Assembly: GCA_000004985.1 (NCBI GenBank)
Contig: GG738881.1
Length of the DNA: 64,000 bases
Reading direction: 5' to 3' (one strand)
DNA from: Naegleria gruberi
Lineage: Eukaryota
Shown here one piece after another: positions 555 to 56,908 of the stretch (positions are counted from its first letter, which is position 1; every line of letters starts with the position of its first letter). Below the pieces are notes generated by a model that made no database searches, was not told where the DNA came from, and saw nothing but the letters and a program-made list of their open reading frames with translations. A program made the translations under genes and the position numbers.

Positions 555-2100
555 AATTTAACAATTGAAATTTAAATAATACAATAATATGTTCCTCACA
601 GTAGTAAGGGCAGTAAATTGATTATCAATCAAAAAAAATGAAATATTTAATATGGCCGTATATTAGTTCACAATATTCTCATTTAACACTCATATTGATT
701 TTGTAAAAATGTAGTTACTTGGAACGATGATTCAAAATGGAAAAGTTCCAATATTGCTTTTCAAAGATTGAGAAGATTGATATTTGAGCAAAATGTTAGA
801 ATTGAATACTTTAAGTTTTATTTACAATGATCGCCTAGGTTTACAAAATTGTGAGTTGTGGAGATTACCACATTTTGAATTGTTTGTTTCTCATTTCTAA
901 AGTATTATGTGATTGAGATTTAGAAGTTTTACTTGTTTCATTTCCGAAATTTCCTTGGATAACATTATTGGTGAAGTGTTATTGGAGGAATTATACATAT
1001 TTCTTCTTGTTGAGACCATTTTCTTATTATTATTTTGTTATTTTCTTTTGTAGATTTTCATTAAATTTCCTTCATCAAAATATTAATAGAAAAATTCAAA
1101 CTTCTTGTTAAAAATCGGAATCACAAAATTAGTGGAAATCATCTTGGAAGTAAATAGATAACTGATCGGATGATGATATTTCCACAACAAAACAAAATAA
1201 CTAAATAACAAACACTAAGAGCAAAATGCCAGCTAGAAATACTTCATCACATTCTTCCAAAGATAAAATTCCAACAAAAACAGAATGGACAAGATCTAAA
1301 CCAATTGATTTATCTAAAAGATTACCATTATTTGATATTGATACTTCAAATATTATAAGTGGAACTAGACATCGTAATAATATTGATTATCATCATGCAA
1401 ATTTAAATGGTAAACAAATTTCAGTGAAAAGATCTTCGAAAAATTCAATTGAAAAGAGAACTAAATGTAAATATCCTAAATTTGTAAATAAAAAAAGAAG
1501 AGAATTAAATACCCAGAAGAATCAGATCTTATTATTGTTCATAACTGAAGTTGCCCTACTGTGTTTGAGGCAGTAGTTCATTTAGTAAATTACTTTGATT
1601 TATGAGAAGAGTTTAATATTGTGTGAATTGTACAACAGAGATTTATTTAAAACTGAAATGATTCAATCTGCTATCATATAATTGTGGTTTTGTTCTTGAT
1701 ATTAGGAGTGCTGTGGATTTGATGAATTCTGCAAATACTAAGTGAGAGAAATAATTGTCAGCCCTCTTGAACTCTATTCTCAACTATTAATTGATTAGGA
1801 AAAGTACAAGAGGGCTCAATGAATCTATAATCATAATAGCTATAGTATTCATTGCAGTAGGTTTCTTTTTTTTTTAATTGAACAAGAGACAATTTCACTC
1901 ATTCAACCCACTTGCTATCTATTTATATTTTTGGAAAATGTAACTTTCATATTTTGAAGCTCACATCCATGCATTTACTTGTCATAAGCAATGCTCAATT
2001 TCATTGTTGTACAGGACATGTGTTTCTGTTGAACAAATATTTCAGGATTCAAATTAATGACTACCGGTACAATTATATTTCACAATTTGAGGAAGTGTAT

Positions 2101-2220
2101 GGCTACGGCCATATCACGATGAATGCACCTCATCCCGTCCGATTTGAGAAGTTAAGCATCGTCGAGCCACATCAGTACTGAGGTTGGAGACAACTTGGGA
2201 ACCTGTGGTGCTGTAGTCTT
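2101..2220 (+). rRNA. 5S ribosomal RNA gene, copy 1, ending in a T-run (pol III terminator).
   Basis: The sequence GGCTACGGCCATATCACGATGAATGCACCTCATCCCGTCCGATTTGAGAAGTTAAGCATCGTCGAGCCACATCAGTACTGAGGTTGGAGACAACTTGGGAACCTGTGGTGCTGTAGTC plus TTTTT matches the eukaryotic 5S consensus blocks (CGGCCATA, CCCGTCCGAT, GTTAAGC, GTACT, GGGAGAC, TGCTGTAG). Helix I pairs GGCTAC with GTAGTC. Confidence 0.9.
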
Positions 2221-3258: not shown

Positions 3259-3329
3259 TGCGTCGACCGGGAATTGAACCCGGGTCACGGCGATGGCAAC
3301 GCCGTATTCTACCACTAAACCATCGACGC
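3259..3329 (-). tRNA. tRNA-Gly (anticodon GCC).
   Basis: The reverse complement is GCGTCGATGGTTTAGTGGTAGAATACGGCGTTGCCATCGCCGTGACCCGGGTTCAATTCCCGGTCGACGCA. It folds as a cloverleaf with a 7-bp acceptor stem, anticodon stem CGGCG/CGCCG, loop TTGCCAT, T-arm CCGGG TTCAATT CCCGG and discriminator A. Confidence 0.9.
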
Positions 3330-3435: not shown

Positions 3436-5235
3436 ATGATCAAGAAACCAGAACTCTTTTCCGACGATATTTGTTTTGAAATTCTTTCCCATTTGGCAAA
3501 TGATTGGAAATTTATTTTCACAACTTGTTCATTAATTTCTCAACAATGGCTAAATGTTATTAAACACAATTCATCATTGTTGAATCTTTCCATTTATTTT
3601 AATCAAAAACTAAATGATGAACAGAAAAATCAAATGTCAAAATGTGAATTATTAACATGTTTATCCAATGTGAAAGTTTATTCAAAGATTGCGAAATGGT
3701 TTTGTACAAATATTGGAATATTCATGAAAGGAATGATTAGATTAGAAATTAGCTATTGTCGTTTGGAAGCAGAAGATGTCAATTTTATTGGTGAAATGAA
3801 GCAATTAACTGAACTTGATATTAGTTTAAATAATATTAATTGTAAAGGAGCTATTACTATCAGTCAATTGAGTAAATTAACTAAACTCAATGTTTATCAA
3901 ACCAAAATGGGTGTTGAAGGTGCTAAAGAACTAAGTAAATTGAAAGAACTAACATCCCTCGAAATAGGAGACAATCATTTAAAATCTGAAGGAGCAGCTC
4001 ACATTGCCCAAATGAGAAAATTAACATTCCTTGATATTAATACCAATATGATTGGAAATGAAGGTATTGAGCTGATAAGTAGAATGGAACAATTAACTGA
4101 TTTAGATGTTATGGATAATAATATTCGATCAGAAGGTGTTAAATCACTCTGTAAAATGAAACATCTTACTAATCTAAATATTGGAAACAATCCAATTGAA
4201 GATGAAGGGGCTATATTATTAGGTGAAATGAAACAATTGAAAAATCTCATTACAGCTTGCAACAATATTGGGATGAAAGGATTTAGCTCACTTAGCACAT
4301 TACTCAATTTGGAATCACTTGTTATACTTGGATTAGATGGTAAATCTACTGATTTCATTCGTGAAATGAATCAATTAACTCGTCTTGAATTTTATGGTTC
4401 TAACCTTGAGCCAAAAGGTTTCGATCCAATTAGTCACCTGTCCAATTTAACATTTCTAACTATAAGGGGTCGAAATATTGCTGATGGTGACTTGGAATGT
4501 ATTGGTCAATTTAAAAAGCTGACCACACTTAATGTACCATCATGCAATATTAATCAAGGATTTAAATCAATTTGTGGGTTGAAGAATTTAACATTCCTTG
4601 ACTTGAGCTATAACAAAATTGAAAGTGTTGAATCAATTACTAATTTGAAGAGTTTGACACAACTTGACATCAATGGGAATCGAATTGGACATGAAGGAGC
4701 AAAATCTATCAGTCAATTAGACAATTTAACTAATCTCCAAATCGGTCATAATTTAATACAAGATGAGGGAATCAAGTATTTAAGTACTATGCAGTGTTTA
4801 ACTACTCTGGGTGTGGCTGAAAATCAAATAAGCATTGAGGGTGCCAAGTTCATAAGCAAATCTCATCAATTGACTTCACTTGATCTCACAAACAACGTTA
4901 TCGAAACTGAAGGAGCCAAAATTTTGAGTGAGCTCAATAATTTGACAGGGTTATTTGTTTATGGAAACAGAATTAGAGATGAAGGAGCCAAATATATCAG
5001 TACTATGCAACAATTAACAATTCTTGATATTGCCTATAATGAAATAACAGATGAAGGAGCAAAAGCAATAAGTAATCTCGATCAACTATCGACACTTTAT
5101 ATTTATTCAAATGAAATTTGTGATGAAGGAGCAAAATCCATTTGTGGAATGAAACAATTGACCATTCTTGATATTGACTATAATGTACTTAGTGAAGAAG
5201 TATCCAATCAATTAAGAATGGAATACCACAACTAA
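3436..5235 (+). CDS. F-box-like N-terminus plus ribonuclease-inhibitor-type leucine-rich repeat protein (~20 RNI-like LRRs).
   Basis: ORF track, 599 aa. The N-terminus FSDDICFEILSHLAN is F-box-like. The motif L..LT.LDI..N.IG.EGAK.IS is repeated throughout. Confidence 0.7.
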   Translation: MIKKPELFSDDICFEILSHLANDWKFIFTTCSLISQQWLNVIKHNSSLLNLSIYFNQKLNDEQKNQMSKCELLTCLSNVKVYSKIAKWFCTNIGIFMKGMIRLEISYCRLEAEDVNFIGEMKQLTELDISLNNINCKGAITISQLSKLTKLNVYQTKMGVEGAKELSKLKELTSLEIGDNHLKSEGAAHIAQMRKLTFLDINTNMIGNEGIELISRMEQLTDLDVMDNNIRSEGVKSLCKMKHLTNLNIGNNPIEDEGAILLGEMKQLKNLITACNNIGMKGFSSLSTLLNLESLVILGLDGKSTDFIREMNQLTRLEFYGSNLEPKGFDPISHLSNLTFLTIRGRNIADGDLECIGQFKKLTTLNVPSCNINQGFKSICGLKNLTFLDLSYNKIESVESITNLKSLTQLDINGNRIGHEGAKSISQLDNLTNLQIGHNLIQDEGIKYLSTMQCLTTLGVAENQISIEGAKFISKSHQLTSLDLTNNVIETEGAKILSELNNLTGLFVYGNRIRDEGAKYISTMQQLTILDIAYNEITDEGAKAISNLDQLSTLYIYSNEICDEGAKSICGMKQLTILDIDYNVLSEEVSNQLRMEYHN

Positions 5236-5437
5236 TTCATATCCTAGATGTTGCTATGGTTTGAACGTAGCTATGGCTGATGTGGAAGGAATCAAAGGGA
5301 GAACTCTCCTCCTAGCGGTATGACAATGTCCAAAGGAATGAATCAACACTTGAAGGCGTAAAATCATTTAGAGATATCATTAAGTTCGTTGCATATTTTT
5401 GATTATTCTCATATAATTATAATATAATGGTTCGACT

Positions 5438-7958
5438 TTAAATGGTCATACAGAAAGAGACAACGTCATCCAATACTTCAGTAACTCTTGAATACTGAAC
5501 TGCACTCATTTTCTTAATACAATTAGAGATTGGAATAATGTTGTATTCTTCAAAATGAATGTCATTACAAATCTCTTCACAAACCCTGGAATAGTTTGCC
5601 ATTATCTTTTTAATAACCACAGACAGTGCAAATATATCATGTTTTACCGTGAATCTGATATTCGGATCTTGAGGTGTGTAATCATCTTTGTAATTCAATA
5701 TACTTTGTTGATTGGAATTCAAGCATTTAGAGTTATTGAAATCTATTAAAACAGCATCAAAATCGTAACTGGTTTTCATTCTAAACATAATGTTATGAAC
5801 ACTGACATCACAATGAACAATGCCCTTATTATGAATGCATTTAAGAGCATGTAAACACCCTATCAATGTCTTCAGTATGATTGTTCTTATAATGGAATTT
5901 CCTTGATACTCTTGATTACTTTGCATCTTTTTTATCAGCTCATCATAGTTTAATAATTTTTCTTGAACTGTAATATTTAATTGGCTATTTACAGGTCCAT
6001 AATAGAAAATATTGCAAATATTAGGGTCTCTAATTTCTTTCATCAATTTCATTACAAACACATTGTCGATTTCTCTATTTGTAATCTTGAAATAAGATTC
6101 CTTATTCTTATATTGTATGGTTCCTAGAATTGATTTTTGTTCTAACTTTTCCATTTGCAAGTTGCTAAAGTCTAATCCTAAATCAAGATCATGAATACTT
6201 TGGGAAAGTTTAAAAAGAGAAGTATTGTTGTTATCGTTATGATCAATGTTATTGTCTACGGTACAATCGTCTTTCCTTTCATTTTCATCCTCAAAATCTT
6301 CTTGATCGTTCCCATCTTCAATTCTAGAATATATATATTCAATTGTTCTCATTGAAACTTTAAGAAACCAATACCTATAAGTAAACTTCTCACCTTCAGT
6401 ATTGAAAAATAATTGAATTTCATTCATAGGATGGGGACACAATTGTCCCCTTGGATAAATATTCAATTCGTAAGGTTTTTCCTTAGTAAAAAATAGTAAG
6501 GTTCTGCCTTTTTGGTTCAGAAAAGTTTTGTGACAAGAGCTTTTGAGTTCTTTTTGGATTTCTTCTTCAACAGGTAGTGGATATCGTAGTATTTGAGAAA
6601 AATGTTTAATGGCTTCATCGGGCGTTTTGAATTCATATAACATTCGTTGAGGGAAAAATTGATGTATCATAATTGACTGATTCGTTATATCAAAAAGTCC
6701 TGGATCTGTATTGGACTTTGAAGTTGTTGGTGTATCAGATATGTTCCTCACCTTTTTTTGGGCTTCATTATTGAAACTCTTGTTCAAACAGTTTTTTCCA
6801 ATTTGAAGAAGTATTGATACAGCTTTAGCTCTTCCGTTCGATGTGTTAATATCATACCATTCCGAACTGAATAATCTAAAACTATAACTAAAAATTGTAG
6901 TATTACTACTCTTTGGAACAAGATAAAGTCTTAAAAAGCAAATTTTGGTCCCACCTGAGAGCGATCCAAAGGTGTCCAATTCAGTATCTGAATTAAGTAA
7001 ATCATTTGAGAACAAGTTATTCATCAATTCTTTTAAAGATCCTCTCATTAGAAACACAATTTTCTTAAAGTCTGGATGGTCGTAAATAGAATCCACTTCA
7101 ACTGGTTTCCATTCTCCAAAAAAGCACCTCCAATCATGGTCTTGAATAATATTTCTGCGAGTCAGTATTTTATCAGGTAAGAAATATTTGGTTGTGAAAT
7201 ATTGTGCCAATCTTGTTTGATTTTCCAGTGATTGTTGCCTGGAATTTAAAAGAATTGATTTTCGAGTGATTGTTGTCTCAATTCCAGAATTTAAAAGAAT
7301 TGATTACATACCCAGTAGAGGTCAATTTTCCCTGTGAAATACTAATAAGAAAGGCAAACAGAATGGAAAGAGTTTCCTGATAGTTCATTTCTGATTCCTG
7401 TTCAAAATGTAAGTTCTGCAATGCATAGAGTGGTGAGAGTAATGGAGTTGGATTGTTGTTCTTGTAGGAGAAGAACAGTTTTTTGGAGAACTCAATAGGA
7501 CAATCAACATTTTCAATTTTGTCTCGATCAAACACACGCTCCATATCTTCTTCAACTTTTAACATGTCTCTATTATCATCAAACACAATGCCTGTTGGTT
7601 TAAGAGAAATCAAGCCTTTTGCAAGAAAAGATTTTGTACTTATTGACAAGCTAGGAGCAACTTCATTGTTCTCTGCCTCTATTCTATCAATAACAGTCTT
7701 TTCTTGTTTTTCAAAAAAGTGTTTCATTATCAATTCCTCTTTTGTATTATTAAACGCTAATTCCAAAGCACTCTTCCAAGAACTTTGAAGATAATCAGGT
7801 ACTTTGGTCATGAATACATCTGAATCACATAATTTAAAATCAAGGACCGATAACACCTCATAATCACCTAAATCATCGGCATTCAAAATAGTTGCCTTGT
7901 GATTCTTCTTATCATATAAACCAGGCCAATTTAACATTCCAAATGGTCCATATATCAA
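5438..7958 (-). CDS. Protein with a C-terminal atypical kinase-like (probable pseudokinase) domain. The 590-aa ORF plus the upstream 226-aa ORF are probably one multi-exon gene.
   Basis: ORF track. The catalytic-loop-like segment GIVHCDVSVHNIMF has HCD in place of HRD, and VLIDFNNS has DFN in place of DFG. The upstream ORF (7278-7958) stays open to ~8036 without an ATG, so further 5' exons may lie toward the gap at 8368. Confidence 0.45.
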
Positions 7959-8367
7959 GACCCAAACACCTTCTTCATCCTCAAACTCTTCCGAAGCGCA
8001 ATCTATTTTACGTTTCTTCTCTCCCCTTAAACATTTTCAGTTCTATTTAATAATAAGGTAGCGACAACACTTACTTAAAAAATGTGCTAAGGGAGATTTC
8101 TTTTCTCATTTTTTTTGTTTGGTAGTGAAGATGATGATATGGCGAACTTACAAAGTTTACGGTTAGTAAGGCGCCATAATGAAATAATATTCAACTTTAA
8201 AAAAGTAATTCTTTTGTGATCATTTCGATGCGGAAACCATTGGTCAATTAATTATTGATCCATTTTCCAAACCAGATTATTATTCTATTTACTCATTCGA
8301 TATTTCTCAGAATTTATTGAGTTTTGGTGTGAAATCTTCGAGAGAATTACAATTCAAATGTGATAAG

Positions 8368-8417
8368 NNNNNNNNNNNNNNNNNNNNNNNNNNNNNNNNN
8401 NNNNNNNNNNNNNNNNN
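8368..8417. other. Assembly gap (50 N).
   Basis: N run in the sequence. Confidence 1.
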
Positions 8418-9272
8418 TCTCCAGAAAAGGCCACATTTATGGATGGTTTTTTCCATTTGAATTGTCAAGAAAATGTGATGGTCAACTCGTATCAGCTCTA
8501 TCTTGTAGCCAAGAAGATTTTCATTCCAATTCCTCCTAATCCAACTCCATCAATTCCACCAGAACCTTCCATTGCTCCGCCAAAACCTGAACCAACTCTT
8601 ATTCCTCCTAAACCATCTCTGCCAACACCAATTCCAAGTTATTCGAAAGGTCCTGCTCCACCTCAACCAGTTCCATCTCCTCAACCAATAACTTCATTCG
8701 AAAGAGAAAATGGAATTCCACTTATTAAAGATTCAACAATTTCCAAGAAAATTCAAGCAGGAGAATCATCTCTCTATCGAATAACCATTCCATCCCATTC
8801 AAGATTGTCTCTTTCATGTTCCACCTTATCTGGAAAAGATATTCTTGTGTTGGTTGGTGAAAATTTCAAACCAACAAATCAACACTATTCCTTAAGAATG
8901 TTTTCAAATCACATTCAATCATTGGATAATCCTTCATCAAATTCTCAAATTTATTTCATTGTAATTGAGGGTCCTAGTGAAGGTTTCTCCCAATTTACAC
9001 TTTTACCATCTGTTGCTCAATTGAATGTACGATCGGCATCATCTTCATCTCAACATTTAATTGGTCAAAGTGTCACTGGATTTATTGTAACTATTGTACT
9101 ATTGACATTATCCTTAATTGGAGCTTTAATTGTAATTCTTTCTTGTGGAATTTATTGGAAAAAGAAAAGCAATAGCGAACTATACTCCCTAGAGACAACT
9201 GGATTAGTAAGAAGAGGAAATGCGAATTCATTACAAGTAGAAGCAAGTTATTATAGTGAGAATAATTTATAA
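8418..9272 (+). CDS. Proline-rich protein with a single C-terminal transmembrane helix. The 5' end is probably lost in the gap.
   Basis: ORF 8439-9272, but the reading frame stays open back to the gap edge at 8418. It has P-rich PxP repeats, a TM segment FIVTIVLLTLSLIGALIVILSCGIYW and a basic KKK stop-transfer. Confidence 0.45.
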   Translation, partial: SPEKATFMDGFFHLNCQENVMVNSYQLYLVAKKIFIPIPPNPTPSIPPEPSIAPPKPEPTLIPPKPSLPTPIPSYSKGPAPPQPVPSPQPITSFERENGIPLIKDSTISKKIQAGESSLYRITIPSHSRLSLSCSTLSGKDILVLVGENFKPTNQHYSLRMFSNHIQSLDNPSSNSQIYFIVIEGPSEGFSQFTLLPSVAQLNVRSASSSSQHLIGQSVTGFIVTIVLLTLSLIGALIVILSCGIYWKKKSNSELYSLETTGLVRRGNANSLQVEASYYSENNL

Positions 9273-10284: not shown

Positions 10285-11061
10285 TTGAACGCAGCTAATT
10301 TCGAGCAGAACTTTGATATTGCTATTTCTAATTGTTTCGACATATTCATTGTAGTTGGTGGATCATCATTGATGATTTTCGATAAATCAAAAGCTGTCAC
10401 CTCTGAAAATTCCCTTTTATTTAACATCAAGTATTGGGAATTTTCGTTTCATTGCTTGCGATTGGTGACTGAGAATTCAGAGGAATTTATTTATGCAAGT
10501 AAAAGTGGAGGAATTATTAAAATTAGAGTGAAGGATTTGATGGAAGGAAAGGAAGGAATTGTGTGGGAATGTAAAAAATCAAACATGAATATTTGGGGAT
10601 TAGATTTGATGGGAAATCAAGTGTTTTTTCTAGATTACAATAGATCAGTAATTTGTAAAGCAAATAAGGAAACAGGAAAGGATGAAGGTGAAGATGTTAT
10701 TCATTTATTTAATGGATATGGAATTGAATTTTTATCTGAAAGTGAAATATTGACATCCAATCAACAATCTTTAGAAATTTTCAAAAAACAAGAAAATAAT
10801 TGGATTTCTAAAAGAAGAGTGGTTATTCCCAAGTGTTCTACTGCCTATTCAATATTTTATGAGAAGGAATCTGGATTAGTTTACTTATCTGATACTGAAA
10901 ATCATCGAATTTTTGTCATTAGATTGTTTGATTTCTCAATTGTTAAAACATTTGAAGATTCTAATGCCATTTCAAGAAATTTCGGATTGTTTGTTGATAA
11001 GCGAACTGGTTTACTCTATGTTGTTAATAACAAATCCAAAGAAATTTCTATTTTTCAATAA
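10285..11061 (+). CDS. Hypothetical protein, possibly beta-propeller (NHL/SMP-30-like) repeats.
   Basis: ORF track. Weakly repeated blocks (GLVYLSDTENHRIFVI, GLLYVVNNKSKEISIF). Confidence 0.3.
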   Translation: MNAANFEQNFDIAISNCFDIFIVVGGSSLMIFDKSKAVTSENSLLFNIKYWEFSFHCLRLVTENSEEFIYASKSGGIIKIRVKDLMEGKEGIVWECKKSNMNIWGLDLMGNQVFFLDYNRSVICKANKETGKDEGEDVIHLFNGYGIEFLSESEILTSNQQSLEIFKKQENNWISKRRVVIPKCSTAYSIFYEKESGLVYLSDTENHRIFVIRLFDFSIVKTFEDSNAISRNFGLFVDKRTGLLYVVNNKSKEISIFQ

Positions 11062-11283
11062 TACTTTCGAAATGTGTCAGTTGACCAAATGGTGATTTTC
11101 AACAATTCGCGCTAGGTCCACTGGTTATCATCTATGGACGATGAAGAAGAAAACTCTGAAACAAAAGATGAAGAGGAGGAAGGAGAACAAGAAAGAATTT
11201 AAACTTGATCAATTTTTAATATTTTAAATAATTTGTACTTTTAAAAAAATGTCTCACATTGACGATGAACTATCCTGCTGCTG

Positions 11284-13342: not shown

Positions 13343-14329
13343 TTAGAAAAGACCACCGAAGCCCATTTCTTCTTCTTCCTCTTCTTCTTCCTTCTTGTCT
13401 TCAACAACAGCAGCAGTGGTGTTAGCAGTAGCAACTGGAGCAGAGGAAGCGAACTTGCTTGGATCAGCAAGGTATTCCTTAACCTTTTCAGCTTGTGGGA
13501 ATGAGAATTCAGTACCAGCAGCAATAGCCAACAAGTTCTTGAAGGTGTTAGCAACAGAGTGAGGAATAGAAGCTTCATTAGGCATATCCAAAGCCAAACC
13601 GAGAGCAGCAACATTGTTGACAGCATCTCTGACCTTTGATTCCATAACTTCGTCAGTCAAAGAAAGGACAGTTGGTGAGTAAACAGCACCGTTGTCATAA
13701 ATGTTAACCAAAACCAAACCATATTCGAAAGGCTTAATGTTCAACAATTGCAACAAAGCAGCTTCTGAGGAACCGACCTTATCACCTGGGTTCAAGAGAA
13801 TGTGTTCCTTGATAATTTCGACGGTACCCTTGGTAATCTTGGTGTTAATGTTAAGGGCTTGGAAGAAAGAAGTCTTGGTTGGTTCAAGACCAGTGTTAGC
13901 TGGTTGAATGACGACCTTGACTGGGGAGATGGCACCTTGCTTAGCTGGAGCACCAACCTTGTATGAGAGAATAACGTCCTTGACTTCGTTCAAATCATTG
14001 TTAGTGAAGACCAAACCAACGTTACCCTTGAGGAGATCAGCAATCTTGGCAATGTTAGCAGCTTGAGCAGCCAATGACTTGTACTTTTCTGGAGCAGAAG
14101 TCAAAACCTTGATAGCCTTCTTCATCAAAGTGTTCTTACCCATGAGCAATTCACCCTTTCCTCTCAAACCGACTCTGATGTCAGCCATTTGCTTGGATCT
14201 AACGTTGTTAGCTTCAACGAAGATAATCTTGGTGTACTTGTCCAACATGTTAATGAAGGATTCAACGTATTGTTCCTTCAACTTTTGCTTTTCGTCCTTT
14301 GACAATTGTCTCTTTGCTCTTTTGACCAT
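13343..14329 (-). CDS. rplp0: 60S acidic ribosomal protein P0 (uL10).
   Basis: Strong full-length similarity to eukaryotic P0, including the block ANNVRSKQMADIRVGLRGKGELLMGKNT and the C-terminal EEEEEEEMGFGGLF tail. The true start is the internal Met MVKRAKRQ, because the ORF-track start at 14392 adds 21 non-homologous residues. Confidence 0.95.
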   Translation of the reverse strand: MVKRAKRQLSKDEKQKLKEQYVESFINMLDKYTKIIFVEANNVRSKQMADIRVGLRGKGELLMGKNTLMKKAIKVLTSAPEKYKSLAAQAANIAKIADLLKGNVGLVFTNNDLNEVKDVILSYKVGAPAKQGAISPVKVVIQPANTGLEPTKTSFFQALNINTKITKGTVEIIKEHILLNPGDKVGSSEAALLQLLNIKPFEYGLVLVNIYDNGAVYSPTVLSLTDEVMESKVRDAVNNVAALGLALDMPNEASIPHSVANTFKNLLAIAAGTEFSFPQAEKVKEYLADPSKFASSAPVATANTTAAVVEDKKEEEEEEEEMGFGGLF

Positions 14330-14922
14330 TTTTGTGGGTAGACCTCTAGTTTGTTTTTTTTCAACAGAAAAATTTAAAACTTGTGCGGACAACTGGCTAA
14401 AAAATATTTTACAATCAAATTTTAATGAAAAAACTTGTTGAAGCAGCCGCCTTCATTTTCTGATTTGATGTTTGCACAAGTTATGTAATTAAGATAAACC
14501 ATTTACATTATTCCAAGTATTGTTACCTCATTCTCTGAATTGTAGATGAAAACCACATGGTTAAACATTGAATGAAAGAATTCAAAAACGATTCAAAAGA
14601 CTACTCTTCCAATCTTAATGAATAGATCTGTCTGATGCTGTACTTATGAGATTGGGTTCCATTCAAACACTACGTGGTAATGAAATTCTGGAAGATTAAT
14701 GAACGATTTGAATTGGATTTGAAATCAATGGTTGAAATCAATTTTCTAAATTACTATCATGATTTAATTAACAACAAAATCACATTTAATAATGTAAAAA
14801 ACAATAATTAACAGTGGTAACATTCGGAATTAATTTTTTGTTTTTATAAGAGTGAGAAGTTGTGTCATTTCGTCGGGTTAAATTATATAAATTGATGTTG
14901 GTGATGATGGAGAAAATCTTCT

Positions 14923-18568: not shown

Positions 18569-20272
18569 TTATATTATAGATTTAGCACTATTGATAAGTG
18601 TACTACCAACATTTCCAATAACTGAACTAACCATTGAGAATGGATTCAAAGTTTCATTTTGATTTCTTCTAATCTTTGATCTCAATAAATTGTAAAGAGA
18701 ATCAAACTCAAGTTTGCTTTGAATAATTGGTAATTCAAATGTTAATCCATGACTAGTTAAAATTGAAAGTGTTCCTAAAATTGGAGATTCTTGATTGTCT
18801 ACATTTTGTAATTTTTTCACAGATTTGATTGAGGTAAATGGAATGACAGTATCTTTCTTTTGAGGTTTCATCCATTCGAAACAAAAATATTGTTCTCCAA
18901 TAAAGGCAATACCAGTTGGTTCTTGTGAATTCGTGGAAAGAAGGAAATAGGTAATTAACTTTTCTCTTGAACAAATCTTATCAATTTGGAATCTTTGGAA
19001 GAAGTATGTTTGAGCTTCTTCTTGTGTCAACATATTTGAAATATTATCATTCTTTGGTTCTTGACGTTTGAGAGAGGCCTTTGAGTGTTTGTATTGATCA
19101 AGGAATGTTTCACAATTTTCCTTTTCAATATCACAAACTTCAATCTCTCCGTAATCTTTAATGGAGATTTTCAAAGTGTTGGAAGTTTGCACAATGTTCT
19201 CAATTCTATTCCATGTGAATTTTTCATAGAAGGTTGCTTGAACAGCATAGAAACAGAAACTACTTGTAAATACAAATATGGAAGATTTGAAAGAGTTTTC
19301 ATCTTGTCTAACATTGGATGAGAAGAATGTAATGCATTGTTCCTCTAATGGAATATCAAACTTTCTCTTGATGATATCTTCTCTATTTTCCTCATCTTCT
19401 GGACCTTTACTAGCTAATGAATCAGAAGATTCAGATGCAGCTGATATGAATCCCTTTGTTTGTTCAGATGATGGTTTTGATCCAAATTTAAACAAGTTCA
19501 TCAATTTGCTTGGTGTATTGGTGCTTTGTGTTGGGGTGGCCTTGTTCTTTGATATTTCCACATTATTTCCAAGATTTTTGAATTGAGTTTGTAAACATTC
19601 AATGAAAGCACTTCTTGAAGATTCATCAGAAAAGAAAAACTTGACTCTATTCTTTGGATTGTTACTTGAGGAGCCAACATAGATAGAAGTGTTGGCAGAT
19701 ATTTTGAAATGAATAGAAACTCCCTTTCTCATAAAACCTTCTGTTAAATGAATCTTTTCAACATCGCGTAATGAAATTCTGTGATAAACATTTGAGAATC
19801 TAAATTCAAATAATAAAAATTCACCACCAATGTGAATAGTTCCTGGAGCAATCTTTGAAGAATCATAACAGGTCGACGTTAAATAGACAGTTAATTTGTC
19901 TGTTCCTTCAACAATGGAATATCTAGCATAAATATTGAATTTGATAATTAATCTTTGAACCTTTGCAGTTTCCTTATATTTAGAATAAATTTTTCTAGCT
20001 TTTTCATCATTCTTCTTTCTAGTAAAAAGTATGGAAACTATGTGATAGGCCTTAACAGGATATTTCTCTGCAAATTTAGTATTTGAAGCAAGTTTTTGTA
20101 AGTGAGCTTCCAGCTTTTCTGTTTGGGTATTGTAAAGTTTACAAAGCTTGACTAAAAGTTTACTCTTAGTTCTGGCAAAATCATGTGAAAGAGCAGTTTC
20201 TTCCTCTTCGTCATCTGTCTTCTCAGCAGATCCACAAAAGTAAATAATAAATAACTCTAAAATAGATTCCAA
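18569..20272 (-). CDS. Hypothetical protein with GRAM/PH-like segments.
   Basis: ORF track. GRAM-like patterns (GIAFIGEQYFCFEW...IPFTSIKSVKKL, IHIGGEFLLFEFRFS). The assignment is weak. Confidence 0.3.
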   Translation of the reverse strand: MESILELFIIYFCGSAEKTDDEEEETALSHDFARTKSKLLVKLCKLYNTQTEKLEAHLQKLASNTKFAEKYPVKAYHIVSILFTRKKNDEKARKIYSKYKETAKVQRLIIKFNIYARYSIVEGTDKLTVYLTSTCYDSSKIAPGTIHIGGEFLLFEFRFSNVYHRISLRDVEKIHLTEGFMRKGVSIHFKISANTSIYVGSSSNNPKNRVKFFFSDESSRSAFIECLQTQFKNLGNNVEISKNKATPTQSTNTPSKLMNLFKFGSKPSSEQTKGFISAASESSDSLASKGPEDEENREDIIKRKFDIPLEEQCITFFSSNVRQDENSFKSSIFVFTSSFCFYAVQATFYEKFTWNRIENIVQTSNTLKISIKDYGEIEVCDIEKENCETFLDQYKHSKASLKRQEPKNDNISNMLTQEEAQTYFFQRFQIDKICSREKLITYFLLSTNSQEPTGIAFIGEQYFCFEWMKPQKKDTVIPFTSIKSVKKLQNVDNQESPILGTLSILTSHGLTFELPIIQSKLEFDSLYNLLRSKIRRNQNETLNPFSMVSSVIGNVGSTLINSAKSII

Positions 20273-40660: not shown

Positions 40661-41603
40661 ATGAAAATTGCTCTTGCACAAGTTCGTTCCATCAATAAGA
40701 TTGGTTTTAATTTTGGAGTTTGCGAAAAATTGATCAAAGAGGCTTCGGAACATAAAGCTTCATTGATTTGTTTTCCTGAATGTTTTGCATTTATGGGAAC
40801 AAGTGCAACAGAGACAATTGCAAACTCTGGATCTTTGGATTCAGAACTTTTTAAATCCTATCAAGATTTAGCTAGAAAATATTCAATCAATATTTCATAT
40901 GGTGGATATCATGAAAAGTCATCTAATGATCCTCATAAAATATTTAATTCACATATACTTGTAAATAATAATGGTGAAATAATTAATGTTTATAGAAAAG
41001 TTCATTTATTTGATTTGAATACTGAAAAAGTTAAATTGAAGGAATCAGAAATTACAGAATTTGGAAAGGATTTACTTGTTGATGATGGTGGATTGATATT
41101 TTCAAATGATTTAAAAATTGGATTATCTATTTGTTATGATTTAAGATTTCCAGAATTATATATTTTACTGAGAAAGATGAATAATGCCAAGATTTTATTA
41201 GTACCAGCTGCTTTTACCAAACATACAGGAGAATTAGGTCACTGGAAAACTCTTTTGATGGCAAGAGCTATTGAAAATCAATGTTATGTGATTGCAAGTG
41301 CTCAAGGTAAGTTTAAATCTTGAGAGCAATTCTTAACATTCTCAAGTTGGTACTCATAATTTGAAGAGACAATCTTATGGTCACAGTTTAGTGATTGATC
41401 CATTAGGAAAGATTATTCTTGACCTAGGTTCACAGGAAGAAACATTTGATTTGGACATTCAAGAAAAGGAACCTTTCGAAGGAAAATTAGGTTTTGTGGA
41501 AATTGATGATTGGATTTCTAATATCAAAAAAGTAAGAGAAGGAATGCCAGTTTTTGATCATAAGAGAAGTGATTTATATGATGTGATCACAAAGAAGGAT
41601 TAA
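40661..41603 (+). CDS. Carbon-nitrogen hydrolase of the nitrilase superfamily (Nit1/Nit2-like amidase), with a ~40-nt intron at ~41307-41346.
   Basis: The catalytic-triad context is present (E in FPECFAF, K in YRKVHLFD, C in LSICYDLRFPE). Splicing gives ...ASAQ-V-GTHNLKRQSYGHSLVIDPLG, restoring the conserved RxSYGHS block. Confidence 0.8.
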
Positions 41604-41641: not shown

Positions 41642-42424
41642 TTAACATCTTTCAAAGAGAGTACAATTTTCCATCAATAAAAATTGAATACATGGATAAA
41701 CGAGTTGTTGTGGGATTGAGTCTTGGGTATTATATTCTCCCTTGGTAATGATTGATTCCATTTGGTTCCACAAATCAGTTTTATCTTGTCCTTTGAAAAA
41801 CATGAATAATTGAGCTGAGTGTTTAAATAAAAAGTGATAATTAACAGTAATTCTATCAAAAACAGCAAATTGAGTTGTAGTTGTGTGAAGTATTTTAAAT
41901 TCATTATCAAAAGTTCCAGGAATAACTGTACTTGAAGGGAATAATGAACAAGTATGACCATCTGGACCCATTCCCAATGTAGATAAAGTAACTTGTTGAT
42001 TTGGTTGAAGAGCTAATTCTTGTTTCAATCTATTTTCATAATCTTTAACACATTCATCAATTGAAAGTTGAGAATTTGGGAAAATTAAAGTAATTTGATC
42101 AGTAACACTACTTGTCAATGATTCAAGTACTAATTTTTGATTACTATCCTTATCATCTTGTGGAACATAACGATCATCCATTAAAAAGAAAATAATATTC
42201 TTATTCGGAAGAAGTGGTTGCATTAATTTTGATAATTTTTCATAAATTGGAATTGGTGTTGAGCCTCCTGAAAGTCCTACCATAGCACGTCCATGTTGTT
42301 GAACACTTTTAACAATTGAATCAAAAATAGCTTGAGCACAGACTGTATTAAAACTGTCATCGGCAACTGATGGTGCTGAATTTGCGAGTGATTTGATGGT
42401 ATTACGTGAGTATTGTACTTTCAT
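41642..42424 (-). CDS. pgl: 6-phosphogluconolactonase.
   Basis: LSGGSTP, FLMDDRYVP, DSN and LGMGPDGHTCSLFP motifs of the 6PGL/NagB family. Confidence 0.85.
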   Translation of the reverse strand: MKVQYSRNTIKSLANSAPSVADDSFNTVCAQAIFDSIVKSVQQHGRAMVGLSGGSTPIPIYEKLSKLMQPLLPNKNIIFFLMDDRYVPQDDKDSNQKLVLESLTSSVTDQITLIFPNSQLSIDECVKDYENRLKQELALQPNQQVTLSTLGMGPDGHTCSLFPSSTVIPGTFDNEFKILHTTTTQFAVFDRITVNYHFLFKHSAQLFMFFKGQDKTDLWNQMESIITKGEYNTQDSIPQQLVYPCIQFLLMENCTLFERC

Positions 42425-43427
42425 TTTTTTTTAATTTTTTTAATTTCGAAGGCTTTTCAAATCTTAACATAACTATTGGATTTATTAAATAATTGGATTT
42501 TAATAACAACTTGGCTTTTTCAATGGTAACTTGATTTGTTGGCCCAATCAAATTGTCGCAGAAGTATGAAATTTGTTTTCTTATTTTTGATTGTAAACTT
42601 AATTGGAAATTAAAAAGTTGAAAAAGAAACATTCAATTAAATGAATGGAAAGTTTAACTAAAAACATAGTCATATTGTATATTAATATAATTTTTTTACA
42701 AATCTCTCTAAATAATCATAATGAGCTTTTCCAATTAATTGACCAAATGAAGCAGCATTCAAAGAGTAGATGTCAATACTATTATAAATACTAGATGTAG
42801 CAATACCAGAGTATTAAGTAGAAGGTCAGAAACTTATTCAAACCGATTTGTCCAACGAAAAAGTATGTACAATGCCCGCAGTGAATGTCCAGGGTTTAGC
42901 AATTCTTAATTAATTCAATTATCCTCAATGGATTAGATATCAAGTTAATTAGCTTAGATGAAATTCATCCAGAATCAACATTATAACTCTATTGAAAACT
43001 TTAAAGAAACAGTTGTTAAGGATTGAAAAATATCTTGCCATAAAAGGCATATTTAAATACACTTTACTTTTACAGAATGTTGATGTGGTTGTAAAATACA
43101 TGATGGTCTTTAAATTCATTTTGCTTCGCTCTTTAAAATTATTTTTGTAAACAACTAGAATTATTTTGTAATACGCTATTCAATGAATACTTTTATTGAC
43201 AATGATTGAGAGAATCCATGATATTTTGTTAATTTAACAACCTCCTCTCAATCTCAATACTAAATGCACAGTTGAATCCCCTTGAAAAGATATGTCATAG
43301 CCATTTATTGCCTTAATACAATGAACAACAAAAATTTTGAACATGTTCATCAATTTAAAATCAATTTAAAAAGGAGAATAAGTTGGAGCATTTGTTGTTT
43401 GTCTTTCAATTGTTATCAAATTTGATA

Positions 43428-43532
43428 AGACGGGAAGCCTGCCAGGAATATGGCGACTATCCCGCTACAGTCTTTGACTGTATGAACAGTGAAGGCAACT
43501 AATCTATTGATTGTTGGTTCAGTAAGTTTGTT
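43428..43532 (-). repeat. Conserved ~105-nt element 'X', copy B (reverse complement of 450-554), 216 nt upstream of 5S copy 2.
   Basis: See copy A. Near-identical core with diverged flanks. Confidence 0.6.
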
Positions 43533-43748
43533 GTTCAAAATAAAAAATTGGATCACCATCTATTTATCACTTTTGAATTTGATCTATTTAGAAAGTGAAA
43601 CTTGTGGTTGATCAATACTCTAAATTAAAAAAGTGTAGAATTTCCTTTTCCAAGTTGAGTCTTCAAATGTTGTAATAGTCCAGTTTTATTTAATTCAACA
43701 GATCCAAATCGTTTTCTCATTCAATATTAAGATTTTAAGAGTATGAAT

Positions 43749-43868
43749 GGCTACGGCCATATCACGATGAATGCACCTCATCCCGTCCGATTTGAGAAGT
43801 TAAGCATCGTCGAGCCACATCAGTACTGAGGTTGGAGACAACTTGGGAACCTGTGGTGCTGTAGTCTT
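43749..43868 (+). rRNA. 5S ribosomal RNA gene, copy 2. Identical to copy 1 over the gene, with different flanks.
   Basis: Same 118-nt sequence as 2101-2218, followed by TTTTTT. Confidence 0.9.
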
Positions 43869-43961
43869 TTTTGAACCACCTTCTTGAATCCATGTATCTG
43901 TGTAATATTTTTAATACTTTAAACTCGTTTAAATATAATAATATATTTAAAGTTAGTTTAT

Positions 43962-44687
43962 TTACAAAATTGAACATGGTTTCTTCTTTTTCTTTGTTAA
44001 TTGATCTTCATCTGATGATTTTAATGATTTTCTAACTTCTCTAACAAGTAAAGCAAAAGATTCATCAACATTTAATCTTTGTTTAGCAGAAGTTTCAATC
44101 ATTGGAATTCCTAATTGTTTAGAATAAACTTTAGCTTCATCTATACGAATCACTCTTTCTGATTCTAAATCACACTTATTACCAACTAATACCATTGGTG
44201 CTTTATCACAATCTTTAACTCTTAATATTTGTTCATAAAATTCATTCACTTCTTCAAATGTTTTTCTATCAATCACTGAATATACCATTAAAAATCCATC
44301 AGCTGTTCTCATATATGAATCTCTTAATGCTTTATATTCTTCTTGTCCAGCTATTTTTTGTAATATTAATATATTTAATATATTAAATATATTTAATATT
44401 ATTATTGTAAACTTACCTGTATCTAAGATTTCTAAAAAAACTGGTTTATCATCAATTTTAGCATGTTTACGATAGGAATCTTCTATTGTTGGATCATATT
44501 CTTCAATATAAATGTTTTGAATGAATTGTACAGTTACTATAAATGGATTGAATATATTAAATATTTCTAAAAGGTTAGGTGAATACTTACATGCACTTTT
44601 ACCAACACCACCTCCACCAATAACTGCAAGCTTAAATTCTTGCATACCATTTGAATTACTATTAGTTGTTGTTTCCTTTGGAGCCAT
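43962..44687 (-). CDS. Ras-subfamily small GTPase with CAAX (CSIL). Three exons (~44591-44645/44687, 44417-44536, 43962-44350).
   Basis: Spliced product (M)[41 protein letters not shown]...LEILDT-AGQEEY...LVGNKCDL...ETSAKQ...CSIL. Introns read GTAAGTATTC...TTTATAG and GTAAGTTTAC...AAAATAG. The start is either MAPKE (44687) or the canonical MQEF (44645). Confidence 0.85.
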
Positions 44688-45001
44688 TTTGATAGTTTTT
44701 TTGCTTTTTGATTTTTGGCAGTTTGTCATTTTTTGCTGCTTGAATTTATTGTTGGTGAACTGGAGAAATTGAATGAACATTTCCCGAACAATGTACAATA
44801 GTTCCCATCTCAAGCTACTCTTGTGTCCACCAAGTTGAAAAGAGAACACAAAGAACATTTCATGACCTCAGTACACATTTCATCCATTCATACATTTATG
44901 GTTTCTTACCATGTCAAATAATGAAATACAAAAAGAATAAATATATTGAAATTATTATTATTATCATTAATATTATTTAATATTATTATTACTTTTAAAA
45001 T

Positions 45002-46545
45002 TTATTGTTGATTTTGTACTAATTGAGGTTGTTGAAAGTGTTGTTCATTTAATTGACCACTTTGTTTATAAATTTCAAATTGTAAAAGTGCGCCTTCTAA
45101 ATTTCTTCCTTCATTAAAAATTTGTTGAGCAACTTGAGGTTTTAATTTAGTTTTTGAAATGAATTGAGTAATTTCTAAAAAGAATTCCAAATCAAAATTA
45201 GAATATGGTCTAATATGATAAATAAAATTAGAAATTAATAGAGAATTTTCATGTTTTTTTAAAATGAAAGAAGTATCAAATGATTTTGTATGCTTATCAC
45301 CATTATTATCTAGGAAAATAACATGACCATGAACAGAGACACATAAACGTCCAATTAGAGCATTTGTTTCAACTTGTCTTGTACTAAATGATAATGCATC
45401 TGATGTTATTCTTTCAATATTATGTTTAGTATTTGGTAGTGCATTAAAGAATTTTAAAATATTACTTGATGAAATGATACTTGATTTTAACTGTTCATTA
45501 CATTCTGTTTTCCTAGATTTTGTATCTTTTTGATCAGGTATATTGAGAATATCACGTGAAAATTGTTGTAATTTTTGAAATGCTTCAATTTCAACTGAAT
45601 CTTCAACATAATCAACATATTCATTTGTAGAATTTGAATAGGTAATAAATGCATCTTTTGCAAATAATGTTTGTAATTCTGTTTTTCTACAATCAATATG
45701 ATCAAATAAATTAGTTAAATATTTTCTTAAATTATCCTCTGATAATCCTTCAACTAAATTATATGGATTAATTTGTGGAAGTGTACTACCACTCTTTCTT
45801 AATTGAGGAGGTATTGGTGCATCATCTAATACTTCTAATTGTGGAAATATTTTACATAATGTAATTACATCTTCATCAGATGCAACTCTATAACATTGAT
45901 TTCCTCTCAGTAATAACATTTTTAAAGGTAGTCCTTTCAATAATTTTAAACTCCCAATGCTGTACATGAATCTTTACAATTTTCTACAACTGATGCACAA
46001 ACTTGTCTAATTAATCCATCATCATAACCATTATTACTCATTCCTTTAAGTGTATCATCAACACACATAAAATCTAATTTTACCAATTGACCTTCTTCAC
46101 TTGTACGTTCTAAAACCCATTCTTTCAACTTTTCACGGAATGGTGTTCTTTTTGGTCCTCCACCACTTTGAAATCCACCTCTTGTATTACCAGAATTACC
46201 TCCTTGATATCCTCCACGTGGTTGATAATTACCATCATTACCACCTTGATATCCTCCTCTTCTACCTCTAAATGAGCCTCCACCACGAGTATTATTACCT
46301 TGTTGATTATATCCACCACCACCACCACTACCACCATCACTATTATTATTGTATGAATTATTTCCTCCTTGATTAAATCCTCCTCTACCACCACCTCCTC
46401 CTTGATAGCCTCCACGTGTACTTCCACTATTTTGATAGCCTCCACGTGTACTTCCACGAGAGTTACCTCTAAACGATCCTCTAAATGATCCTCTGAATCC
46501 GCCTCTAGTATTACCTCCTCTAGTTGATGGATATGGTGTTGACAT
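45002..46545 (-). CDS. Nuclear mRNA export factor NXF1/Mex67-like (RGG-rich N-terminus, LRR, NTF2-like, TAP-C-like). The two ORFs (45002-45967 and 45946-46545) need a frameshift or intron to join.
   Basis: LKGLPLKMLLLRGNQCYRV...ITLCKIFPQLEVLDDAPIPP aligns with NXF1 KIKGLKLEELWLDGNSLC...[22 protein letters not shown]. An NTF2-like region follows. The upstream ORF has RGG/FRG repeats and an RBD-like end. Confidence 0.5.
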
Positions 46546-46910
46546 TTTTTTTTAAATTATAAAAATGTATTTTGAATTATTTTTATATCAACTCTACAAG
46601 TAAATTTACTTCATCATCAATGAATCTTGAAGAGATGAAGAAAATAGATACCATTGATGAATGATCAAACTGTCCACTCACTGTATTCATTTTGAGGTTA
46701 TTGTAAAGTTACTTGTCAACCAAATTCAAATCTAAAAAAAGATTTTGAAAATGAACTTCAAATTGGATCTTCAACCTCTTGAAAAAAGCCTTCACATCTA
46801 TTTATTGAAGAACTCTACCCTCAAAAAAAAAGCCTTCAAATCAATACAACTATAACACATCACTATACCTATTATTAATTCTACTAAGATAGTCTACTAC
46901 TAACTATATA

Positions 46911-47729
46911 ATGAAAAAATCCAATAACAATAATAAGAAAGCATCATCTTCATCTTCATCATCTTCGGAACAAGCAGATAGTATTGATATTATAAAATTT
47001 CCACGTACTCATCACTTATTTTCAACCAATAAAGAAGTAACTCGTGATGATTTAGTAATGGATGAAAAGGATGCAGCTAGAGAATTCTATGCACCATCAC
47101 TTGGACCACAAGTAACATTGGAAGAAAAAGTTGATGGATCAAATTTGGGAATTACATTAGATATTGAAAGTTATAAATTAAGATGTCAAAATAGATCACA
47201 TTATGTTACTTGTCAATCACATGCACAATTTAAAACATTACAATTATGGTTAGATGAACATTCAAGTGAATTATTTTCATTATTAAGTGATAATAATAAT
47301 GGATATATTTTATATGGTGAATGGATGTATGCTAAACATTCAATTTATTATGATCAATTACCTGATACATTTATTGCATTTGATATTTATGATAAACATG
47401 CAGAGAAATTTGTATCAGTTCAATTAAGAAATCAATTACTTTTAAATCATGCACCAACTATTTCAATTGTTCAACCACTTCCAATTTTAAATTCACCACA
47501 TTTAACAAAACAAGTTTTATTGAATTTATTAGAAAATCAAAAATCAATTTATTGTTCACCCGAATTGAATCAACCAATTGAAGGTGTTTATGTTAGAGTT
47601 GATGAAGGAAATTATTTAAAAACAAGATCAAAGGTTGTTAGATCAGATTTTATTCAAGCAATTGATACTCATTGGTCTGGTCAAGAACTTGTTAAAAATA
47701 GAGTTGATTTTTCATTAAAATATAATTAA
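46911..47729 (+). CDS. ATP-dependent RNA-ligase-like nucleotidyltransferase (KxDG motif).
   Basis: FPRTHHL followed by EEKVDGSNLGI (motif I K-x-D-G-x-N), YGEWM (motif III-like) and EGVYVRVDEG (motif IV-like). Confidence 0.5.
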   Translation: MKKSNNNNKKASSSSSSSSEQADSIDIIKFPRTHHLFSTNKEVTRDDLVMDEKDAAREFYAPSLGPQVTLEEKVDGSNLGITLDIESYKLRCQNRSHYVTCQSHAQFKTLQLWLDEHSSELFSLLSDNNNGYILYGEWMYAKHSIYYDQLPDTFIAFDIYDKHAEKFVSVQLRNQLLLNHAPTISIVQPLPILNSPHLTKQVLLNLLENQKSIYCSPELNQPIEGVYVRVDEGNYLKTRSKVVRSDFIQAIDTHWSGQELVKNRVDFSLKYN

Positions 47730-47806
47730 ATTATTTAATTTTATAATTTAAATTTATTTAATTTATTATTTAATTTTTCAATATTTATTAATACATATAA
47801 TTTTAA

Positions 47807-48388
47807 CTAATTTTGATCATCATCTAAATGATTTATAAAAATATTATTTCTATTATTTTGATTTGAATTATTAACATTAAATTGTATAATTTCAACACAT
47901 TTTCTTAATTCTTTAATATTATGATATAAATTTCTCATTTGTTTTAATTCATTATTTAAATCATTTAAACGATTAATAAAAGATTCCAAACTATCAACAG
48001 ATTCATTTACATTATTACAAAAACTATCAACTGTATTTTTATATAATTCAATATGTTGTAATGTTATTGCACTTTTAGCATACATTGATGTTTGTAATGA
48101 TCCTAATAAATGATTAAATGATTCTGATAATTGAAAGGCTTTACTTTCTAATACTCGAATTGTTTTTGATGTTATTTGTTGTTTTTCATCTTCTACTACT
48201 AATACTGTACTATCTTGTTCATTTGTGTTATTATTATTATTAATATTATTATTAATATTGGATTGTAATTGTTGATTTTCATTCGATCCGATTATTTCTT
48301 CATGTTGTTGTTGTTGTTCCATATCGTGATGGTCATGATCATCATTTATTATTGTTGATGGATTAAAATCTTGTTGTTGTTCACTCAT
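47807..48388 (-). CDS. Coiled-coil protein, possibly a BLOC-1/BORC-family small subunit.
   Basis: ORF track. Heptad-rich C-terminal half. Pattern only. Confidence 0.25.
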   Translation of the reverse strand: MSEQQQDFNPSTIINDDHDHHDMEQQQQHEEIIGSNENQQLQSNINNNINNNNNTNEQDSTVLVVEDEKQQITSKTIRVLESKAFQLSESFNHLLGSLQTSMYAKSAITLQHIELYKNTVDSFCNNVNESVDSLESFINRLNDLNNELKQMRNLYHNIKELRKCVEIIQFNVNNSNQNNRNNIFINHLDDDQN

Positions 48389-48498
48389 TTTTATTATTTG
48401 TTATTATTTTGATGTTGAAAATATCTTTGACAATTTTGTAATTATTCAACCACCAAATAATATTCAAATACAAATACTTGGAGAATAAATAATTTATT

Positions 48499-49965: not shown

Positions 49966-50382
49966 GATTAAAATAATAATAATAATAATAAATAATATAG
50001 ATGATGATGATGGTGGTGATATTAGTGATGAATAATTTTGTTGTTATTAAATGGGTAGGAGTAATAAATTCCGTGCAACACAGGAAGACTCTGAAAATAC
50101 AATCAACTAGTGCAACACTTGAAAAGCACGTTTGAAGGCTTTTTTTTAAATAATATATTATGCGATAAAAATGATTGAGAGTTGCCTTGTTTATTCATAT
50201 GCAATGTTTTTAGCCTTTTTTGTCATCACTTTAAAAAATTCACCAATTTCCCTTTCTTTGTAAAATTGAATGATATGACATATTACAACCAATCAAATAA
50301 ATTGTAATATTATAATATATTATAATAATAATTGAATAATTAGAATAATTAGAATAATAATAATTAAAAAAAGAATGAATAT

Positions 50383-52198: not shown

Positions 52199-52324
52199 TT
52201 TTTTTGAAAGTTTTGATCAAAGTTGTTTTTCAAATTTCAATATTGAAATTGATCAACAAAGAAATTATATTGGAAAGAGAATAGCTCCCGCCAATTTGTA
52301 ATTTAAAAAATTGCGCCAAAAAAA

Positions 52325-53333: not shown

Positions 53334-53468
53334 AAAAAGATGATTTTAAATTTGCAACATGTTCAACTTGTTGGAGGCTTCTTTCCAGCCTTTTGGTTCT
53401 ATCTTTGGCACATCATTATGATCCAATCACAACCATCATCATCAAATAAAATATATTTTATAAAAAAA

Positions 53469-54761: not shown

Positions 54762-54768
54762 ATTTCTT

Positions 54769-56824: not shown

Positions 56825-56908
56825 TTAAAGATTGAAACTATTTAAAAGTTGAAGAAGGAATTTAATAATCCCTTAATATATTGCAAAAGAGGTAAATATA
56901 AAATTTAT

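Follow-up and report, generated by a model that had tools for sequence, protein, structure and literature searches.

Two identical, dispersed chromosomal 5S rRNA genes on scaffold_37 of Naegleria gruberi

The two 5S rRNA genes

The DNA analysed here, referred to throughout as the window, is a stretch of 64,000 nucleotides. It contains two 5S rRNA genes on the same strand, each preceded by a short AT-rich box:

2073-2080, plus strand: TATA-like, AT-rich box with the sequence TTATATTT, spanning -28 to -21 relative to copy 1 (function putative)
2101-2220, plus strand: 5S rRNA gene, copy 1 (Rfam RF00001); entry R33494 of Feng et al. (2012), scaffold_37:317953-318069
43723-43730, plus strand: TATA-like, AT-rich box with the sequence AATATTAA, spanning -26 to -19 relative to copy 2 (function putative)
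43749-43868, plus strand: 5S rRNA gene, copy 2, with the sequence of copy 1; entry R33493 of Feng et al. (2012), scaffold_37:359601-359717

The two copies are identical at 120 of 120 nt. In an Rfam scan of the whole window, each matches the 5S_rRNA model RF00001 over model positions 1-120, with a score of 105.4 bits (E-value 4.4e-22) against a gathering score of 38, the covariance-model match ending at 2219/2220 and 43867/43868. No non-canonical pair is flagged for either copy in the RF00001 alignment, and the minimum free energy fold of the RNA is the canonical three-arm structure. Both copies are intact 5S rRNA genes. An earlier note on this DNA had placed identical 5S genes at these positions and on one strand, each ending in a run of T, and the scan bears it out: the T-run directly 3' of the gene is T5 at 2219-2223 for copy 1 and T6 at 43867-43872 for copy 2. 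A T-run is also found at the gene end in 11 of 12 related Naegleria-type 5S loci.

From start to start, the copies are 41,648 bp apart. The sequence that they share extends from 2096 to 2223 around copy 1 and from 43744 to 43871 around copy 2, and the flanks outside this block cannot be aligned. The spacing of 41.6 kb and the unrelated flanks described in the earlier note thus both stand, with the caveat that a second repeat, here called I1, lies near both copies.

Within the gene, box A is an exact pattern match at +50-64 (AGTTAAGCATCGTCG), and a stretch resembling box C, at +80-97, differs at two positions from the pattern of Feng et al. When 12 Naegleria-type 5S loci are aligned on +1, the A+T content reaches a maximum of 92% at -26 and -24. 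The genome is itself AT-rich, at about 30% GC, and this upstream maximum gives no more than a faint indication that the AT-rich box may be a promoter element.

Gene content and source of the DNA

The remaining features of the window used here, apart from the I1 repeat and the segment around copy 2, are as follows:

3259-3329, minus strand: tRNA-Gly(GCC), found by ARAGORN and by Rfam at 66.9 bits, 1.04 kb downstream of copy 1 (context only)
13343-14392, minus strand: open reading frame for ribosomal protein P0, 100% identical to the N. gruberi protein
60357-60439, plus strand: tRNA-Leu(UAA), found by Rfam and ARAGORN

The surroundings of the 5S genes are gene-dense, with 39 open reading frames of 180 aa or more across the 64 kb, in agreement with the earlier description of the region as dense in RNA polymerase II genes. 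Several of these frames are exact N. gruberi proteins. The only Rfam matches in the 64-kb window are the two 5S genes and the two tRNA genes, with no match to SSU, LSU, 18S, 5.8S or 28S rRNA. Linkage of the 5S genes to 17S/26S rDNA, a point raised in the earlier note, is accordingly not seen in the window, and the catalogue of Feng et al. (2012) marks the 5S genes of N. gruberi 'not located with rDNA units'. A 5S gene linked to the rDNA, of the D. discoideum palindrome type or the S. cerevisiae repeat type, was considered and rejected, there being no SSU, LSU or 5.8S sequence in the window.

The earlier note treated the DNA as that of a dictyostelid, in which the 5S gene would have left the extrachromosomal palindrome, giving an rDNA organisation that differs among social amoebae. 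This proposal has some points in its favour, namely that the genome is AT-rich, that the stretch from 44 to 64 kb has Dictyostelium-like coding repeats of the AAT-rich, Asn type, and that the 5S genes are truly unlinked to rDNA. However, five window proteins are 100% identical to proteins of N. gruberi NEG-M, and some of them come from the Asn-repeat-rich part. They are P0 and the products of the frames at 40661-41323, 41642-42424, 46911-47729 and 48499-49965, all four of which match NEG-M proteins from the scaffold of P0. The next-best matches of P0 are from Naegleria fowleri (79%) and Willaertia magna (74%), the low-GC part of the window is syntenic with Naegleria lovaniensis, and the coordinates of the 5S genes agree with the N. 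gruberi catalogue. We therefore regard a dictyostelid source as having practically no likelihood. The DNA is that of N. gruberi, and the comparison with the D. discoideum palindrome is therefore inapplicable. This correction, from a dictyostelid to the amoeboflagellate Naegleria gruberi, is the main use of the present analysis.

The window can be placed precisely. The catalogue spacing of the two 5S genes equals that in the window, and the first base of the catalogue entry, a T, corresponds to window position 2104. It follows that the window is the final 64 kb of JGI scaffold_37, with base 1 at 315,850 and base 64,000 at 379,849, a number equal to the length of the contig in bp.

It is worth adding that base composition changes along the window, from 31% GC at 1-44 kb to 23.6% at 44001-64000, where the lowest value is 16% (50-52 kb). 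The low-GC stretch begins just past copy 2, extends to the scaffold end and carries genes with AAT/ATT-rich repeats of the Asn type. The matching region of N. lovaniensis has a uniform 36% GC and shorter orthologues (STL11_N has 350 aa, against 484 aa in the window). Its synteny with N. lovaniensis shows the stretch to be true DNA of Naegleria. A contig of 5,177 bp from the ENA metagenome ERZ929261 is 99.2-99.4% identical to window positions 3902-9217 over about 5 kb, from which it follows that a strain very near N. gruberi NEG-M occurs in that sample. The contig stops within an LRR gene, short of copy 1.

The published 5S catalogue

Feng et al. (2012, PLoS One 7:e36878, PMC3369914) listed 279 putative 5S genes in the JGI N. 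gruberi assembly. They reported an internal control region (ICR), a TATA box and T-run terminators, and found no detectable TFIIIA homologue. Their Table S1 has three entries on scaffold_37, one at 186613 and the other two (317953-318069 and 359601-359717) being the copies in the window. Both genes, their family and its separation from the rDNA unit are thus already known and were published in 2012. With both copies in a catalogue of 279 genes, the finding is an ordinary one.

Re-analysis of Table S1 shows that the 279 entries are spread over 117 scaffolds. The 162 gaps between neighbouring entries have a median of 33.9 kb; 22 are shorter than 3 kb, and no value recurs. These statistics indicate a family that is dispersed, with some loose clusters, and not tandem. 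Table 1 of the same paper gives 'tandem arrangement: Y' for the N. gruberi 5S genes, which conflicts with the coordinates in Table S1. A tandem 5S array was also rejected for the window copies themselves, on the basis of the 41,648-bp distance, the unrelated spacers and the 162 gaps without a recurring value. That these are dispersed single chromosomal copies, as the earlier note had it, agrees both with two singletons in unrelated flanks and with the scattered coordinates of Table S1. The dispersed rather than tandem arrangement of the published coordinates is a result of minor value here, as is the position of copy 2, described below.

Both window copies fall in the modal class of the catalogue, made up of the 157 of 279 entries that have a length of 117 nt and a similarity of 0.75; as a class of identical sequences this is a proxy, in that entries equally similar to a heterologous query are treated as having the same sequence. 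If the 157 do share one sequence, the identity of two randomly picked copies is unremarkable. The earlier note attributed the identity to purifying selection or gene conversion, a reasonable reading, although the data do not discriminate between the two. Most of the catalogue (264 entries) has a length of at least 112 nt and a similarity of at least 0.70. The other 15 entries fall under one of these limits, suggesting that decayed copies exist.

Full-text literature searches with the 5S and I1 sequences gave no match.

Relatives and synteny

JGI metagenome contigs were scanned with a Naegleria-specific 32-mer of the 5S gene, which yielded 13 contigs. All 13 carry one 5S gene each, in flanks that are unrelated to one another and to the window. 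The 5S gene of one contig (L005) has a single difference from the window gene; the others are about 84% identical. In an alignment of nine Naegleria-type 5S sequences, 15 of 39 base pairs have compensatory changes with pairing kept, which argues that the family is under structural constraint.

Several dispersed copies come from one environmental relative, with a 5S sequence about 84% identical to that of the window (VFQM/VFQO metagenome contigs L001, L006, L007, L010 and L012). Short motifs recur in the flanks of these copies, TTTCTTC immediately before the gene and TTTTACT(T) immediately after it, and the copies differ from one another by compensatory changes in one 5S helix (alignment columns 14-21 with 57-65). 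The motifs may reflect either a duplicated unit slightly longer than the RNA or conserved start and stop signals.

Copy 2 can be compared with a syntenic locus. Gene order is conserved, in reverse, between 34.4-54.8 kb of the window and the 6-phosphogluconolactonase (6PGL) locus of N. lovaniensis. The gap between NXF_NTF2 and 6PGL, which is 137 nt in N. lovaniensis (contig L014, 9864-10000), is 2.57 kb in N. gruberi, and the additional segment contains copy 2 together with other features:

42431-45004: N. gruberi segment of 2.57 kb with no N. lovaniensis counterpart, holding a ubiquitin relic, I1 arm B, 5S copy 2 and a GTPase gene
43240-43296, minus strand: relic resembling a ubiquitin C-terminus, DISFQGDSTVHLVLRLRGG (tblastn within the window, E-value 8e-5)
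43962-44858, minus strand: Ras-family (Rab-like) GTPase gene

The relic sits in an open reading frame of 39 aa (43234-43353, minus strand) that starts MMNMFKIFVV and has no Pfam match; it resembles a ubiquitin pseudogene with an internal deletion. N. lovaniensis for its part has C2-C2_1, Cyt-b5 and SDR genes that are not present in the N. gruberi stretch.

No 5S gene was found in the N. lovaniensis 6PGL locus, in its second haplotype contig, in one Willaertia locus, in one N. fowleri locus or in another Naegleria-like 6PGL contig. Copy 2 is therefore not positionally conserved, and its absence from the N. lovaniensis locus hints at copy turnover, either by gain in the N. gruberi lineage or, equally well on these data, by loss in N. 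lovaniensis. On the side of copy 1, the only homologue of the kinase-like neighbour is on a metagenome contig with 99% identity that ends before the 5S gene, and at the N. fowleri P0 locus synteny is lost on the side relevant to copy 1.

A 20-kb locus of Willaertia magna (L016) has tRNA genes at 4617-4687, 11002-11072 and 19595-19665, each with an Rfam score of 57.8 bits and about 6-8 kb from the next. This suggests that W. magna has dispersed identical tRNA copies.

It could be argued that the two genes are inactive pseudogenes, recently retroposed by reverse transcription of the RNA. The identity is confined to what is essentially the transcribed unit, from about +1 to the T-run; copy 2 is missing at the syntenic N. 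lovaniensis locus; and the 15 short or divergent catalogue entries suggest that decayed copies occur in the family. Against this, neither copy has a poly(A) tail, a target-site duplication, a truncation or a mutation, and both belong to the modal class, each folding perfectly into the canonical structure and having its terminator intact and an AT-rich box upstream. Moreover, an internal promoter could keep a retroposed copy active, in which case the label would describe the origin of the gene and not a loss of function. We consider inactive retroposed copies quite improbable. Terminal inverted repeats, target-site duplications and A-tails were looked for around the 5S copies and the 2.57-kb segment, and none was found. 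A 5S retropseudogene or 5S-derived SINE was likewise rejected, since both copies run the full length of the gene without a difference between them and lack an A-tail as well as direct repeats on either side.

An artefact of assembly, in which a repeat was collapsed or misplaced in the draft scaffold, has also to be considered, given that the genome is a Sanger draft of 2010 and that the window runs to the scaffold end. Each copy is nevertheless surrounded by unique sequence and intact neighbouring genes, the N. lovaniensis gene order matches on both sides of the 2.57-kb segment, and the independent metagenome contigs also show one 5S gene in unique flanks. A repeat of 120 nt is in any case much shorter than a Sanger read, and does not cause misassembly. 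The likelihood of an artefact is very small indeed.

The I1 repeat

The second repeat near the 5S genes, I1, consists of two arms in inverted orientation:

325-557: I1 arm A, with a conserved core at about 452-557; about 1.5 kb upstream of copy 1
43425-43670: I1 arm B, inverted relative to arm A, with its core at 43425-43531, upstream of copy 2 and 217 nt short of it

The arms (about 195-240 nt) are 89% identical over about 195 nt and have a core of about 107 nt with one base difference; at the second site, the repeat lies 0.13-0.3 kb upstream of copy 2. The GC content of the core is 43-44%, compared with 31% locally. On both strands, the core folds better than shuffled controls, with a z-score of -5.3 on the plus strand (arm A) and of -3.0 to -4.1 on the other strand. 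The lone substitution in the core sits in a predicted bulge (plus strand of arm A). Read on the plus strand of arm A, the 5' end of the core is AAACUUACUG, which is complementary to the 5' splice-site sequence CAGUAAGU. Upstream of the core there is a TATA-like ATA(T/A)ATAG about 35 nt away, with a block conserved at 18 of 18 positions farther up and a variable spacer before the core. These upstream blocks resemble the promoter of a small-RNA gene.

I1 has no relevant match in Rfam at E-values up to 10. A comparison with 1.84 billion representative proteins gave three weak matches (E-values 2e-6 to 2e-5). Each of the proteins matched is highly repetitive and bears no apparent relation to Naegleria. 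I1 was absent from viral contigs and from all the other loci compared, these being 13 Naegleria-type 5S loci and the N. lovaniensis, N. fowleri and Willaertia loci.

Two specific identities were considered for I1. The U1 snRNA was rejected, as nothing in Rfam matches, no Sm site is conserved, and neither a U1-70K nor a U1A loop can be recognised. The only U1-like traits are the 5' ACUUACUG and the conserved upstream blocks, and the only Sm-like sequence, AAAUUUGA in arm B, is not conserved in arm A. A coding exon was judged unlikely, since the sole open frame, in arm A, has a stop in arm B and there is no Pfam match.

We leave I1 unclassified: it may be a structured RNA or else a duplicated fragment that is decaying, and its association with 5S comes from two instances. 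A more specific reading is that I1 (core at 452-557 on the plus strand and 43531-43425 on the minus strand) is an undescribed Naegleria gene for a small structured RNA of about 105 nt, with a single-stranded 5' AAACUUACUG and promoter-like blocks, lying beside 5S in lineage-specific insertions. This reading is improbable. If it were true, gains and losses of small-RNA genes in N. gruberi would be joint events, of which the 2.57-kb segment would be an example.

The proximity of I1 raises the further question of whether 5S and I1 were duplicated as a single composite unit, in which, for instance, a pair of small-RNA genes would move or undergo conversion jointly. AT-rich low-complexity families aside, no repeat in the 64 kb is longer or better conserved than I1 and 5S, and I1 lies at most 1.6 kb and at most 0.3 kb from the two 5S copies, for which the chance is roughly estimated at about 1-2% if I1 were placed randomly. 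However, the orientation of I1 and its distance to 5S differ at the two sites and the intervening sequence is unrelated; the 13 other Naegleria-type 5S loci, like the loci of the three relatives, have no I1; and there are two instances only. A composite unit is therefore unlikely.

Proposed working of the 5S family

Taken together, these results make it highly probable that the two copies are members of a large dispersed chromosomal 5S family of N. gruberi NEG-M, in which each copy is a self-contained type-1 unit for RNA polymerase III. The internal control region, comprising box A and the box C-like stretch, would drive each copy together with the AT-rich box some 20-30 nt upstream, and RNA polymerase III transcription would stop at the T-run. 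The 5S transcript would then enter the large ribosomal subunit, alongside the 18S, 5.8S and 28S rRNAs supplied by a multicopy circular element. Two statements of Feng et al. (2012) stand against this picture, namely their tandem label and the lack of a TFIIIA homologue, the latter bearing on how the internal promoter would be recognised.

Because the promoter would be mostly internal, a 5S copy should be able to work wherever it lands, and a family of copies that work anywhere could take the form seen here, of hundreds of single genes between protein-coding genes. For these particular copies, transcription by RNA polymerase III is probable on the strength of their intactness and their modal sequence. 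Copies of the family are presumably gained and lost over time, in a birth-and-death process; in support of such turnover, we note that the syntenic N. lovaniensis locus and the other Naegleria-like 6PGL contig have no 5S gene. The sequence itself would be upheld by purifying selection, possibly aided by gene conversion.

Comparison with known systems

The circular extrachromosomal rDNA element (CERE) of Naegleria was reportedly described by Clark and Cross in 1987 and by Maruyama and Nozaki in 2007, and the extrachromosomal place of the Naegleria 18S, 5.8S and 28S genes has been known since 1987. According to Mullican et al. (2018, PMC5805870), single 18S, 5.8S and 28S genes are carried on the element, which is present at 3,000-5,000 copies; the genes given for it in that paper are these three, with 5S not among them. 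The CERE is the source of the other three rRNAs of the Naegleria ribosome, while the 5S genes are instead chromosomal. With the large rRNA genes on an extrachromosomal element, an unlinked chromosomal 5S gene is the expected state, and the lack of 18S and 28S sequence near the 5S genes of the window is explained by their being carried on the CERE. The earlier note presented a 'different rDNA organisation' as newly indicated by these genes; for Naegleria this arrangement was already in print (PMC3369914, PMC5805870).

The closest comparison is with the N. gruberi family of Feng et al. (2012), which is the same in organism, scaffold, coordinates, class (117 nt, similarity 0.75), ICR, TATA box and T-runs. 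There is no substantive difference, and the only disagreement is between that paper's tandem label and its own coordinates. What the present analysis adds, the dispersal in the published coordinates apart, is that copy 2 lies in a segment with no N. lovaniensis counterpart.

Dispersed 5S genes also occur well outside this lineage. Tetrahymena has 174 putative 5S genes (PMC1557398). Filamentous fungi, fission yeast and ciliates likewise have many single 5S genes with internal promoters, set among protein-coding genes and unlinked to 18S-28S. Dispersed 5S genes are found in both Neurospora crassa and Schizosaccharomyces pombe. The dispersed 5S families of fungi and ciliates contain some copies that are variant or decayed, in keeping with birth-and-death under purifying selection. 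Naegleria differs from these groups in belonging to the Heterolobosea and in having its large rRNA genes wholly off the chromosomes.

In this last respect it resembles D. discoideum, as both organisms carry the large rRNA genes outside the chromosomes, on an element present in many copies. The 5S gene of D. discoideum sits on that element, the extrachromosomal rDNA palindrome, whereas the 5S genes of N. gruberi are chromosomal, and the two organisms are unrelated.
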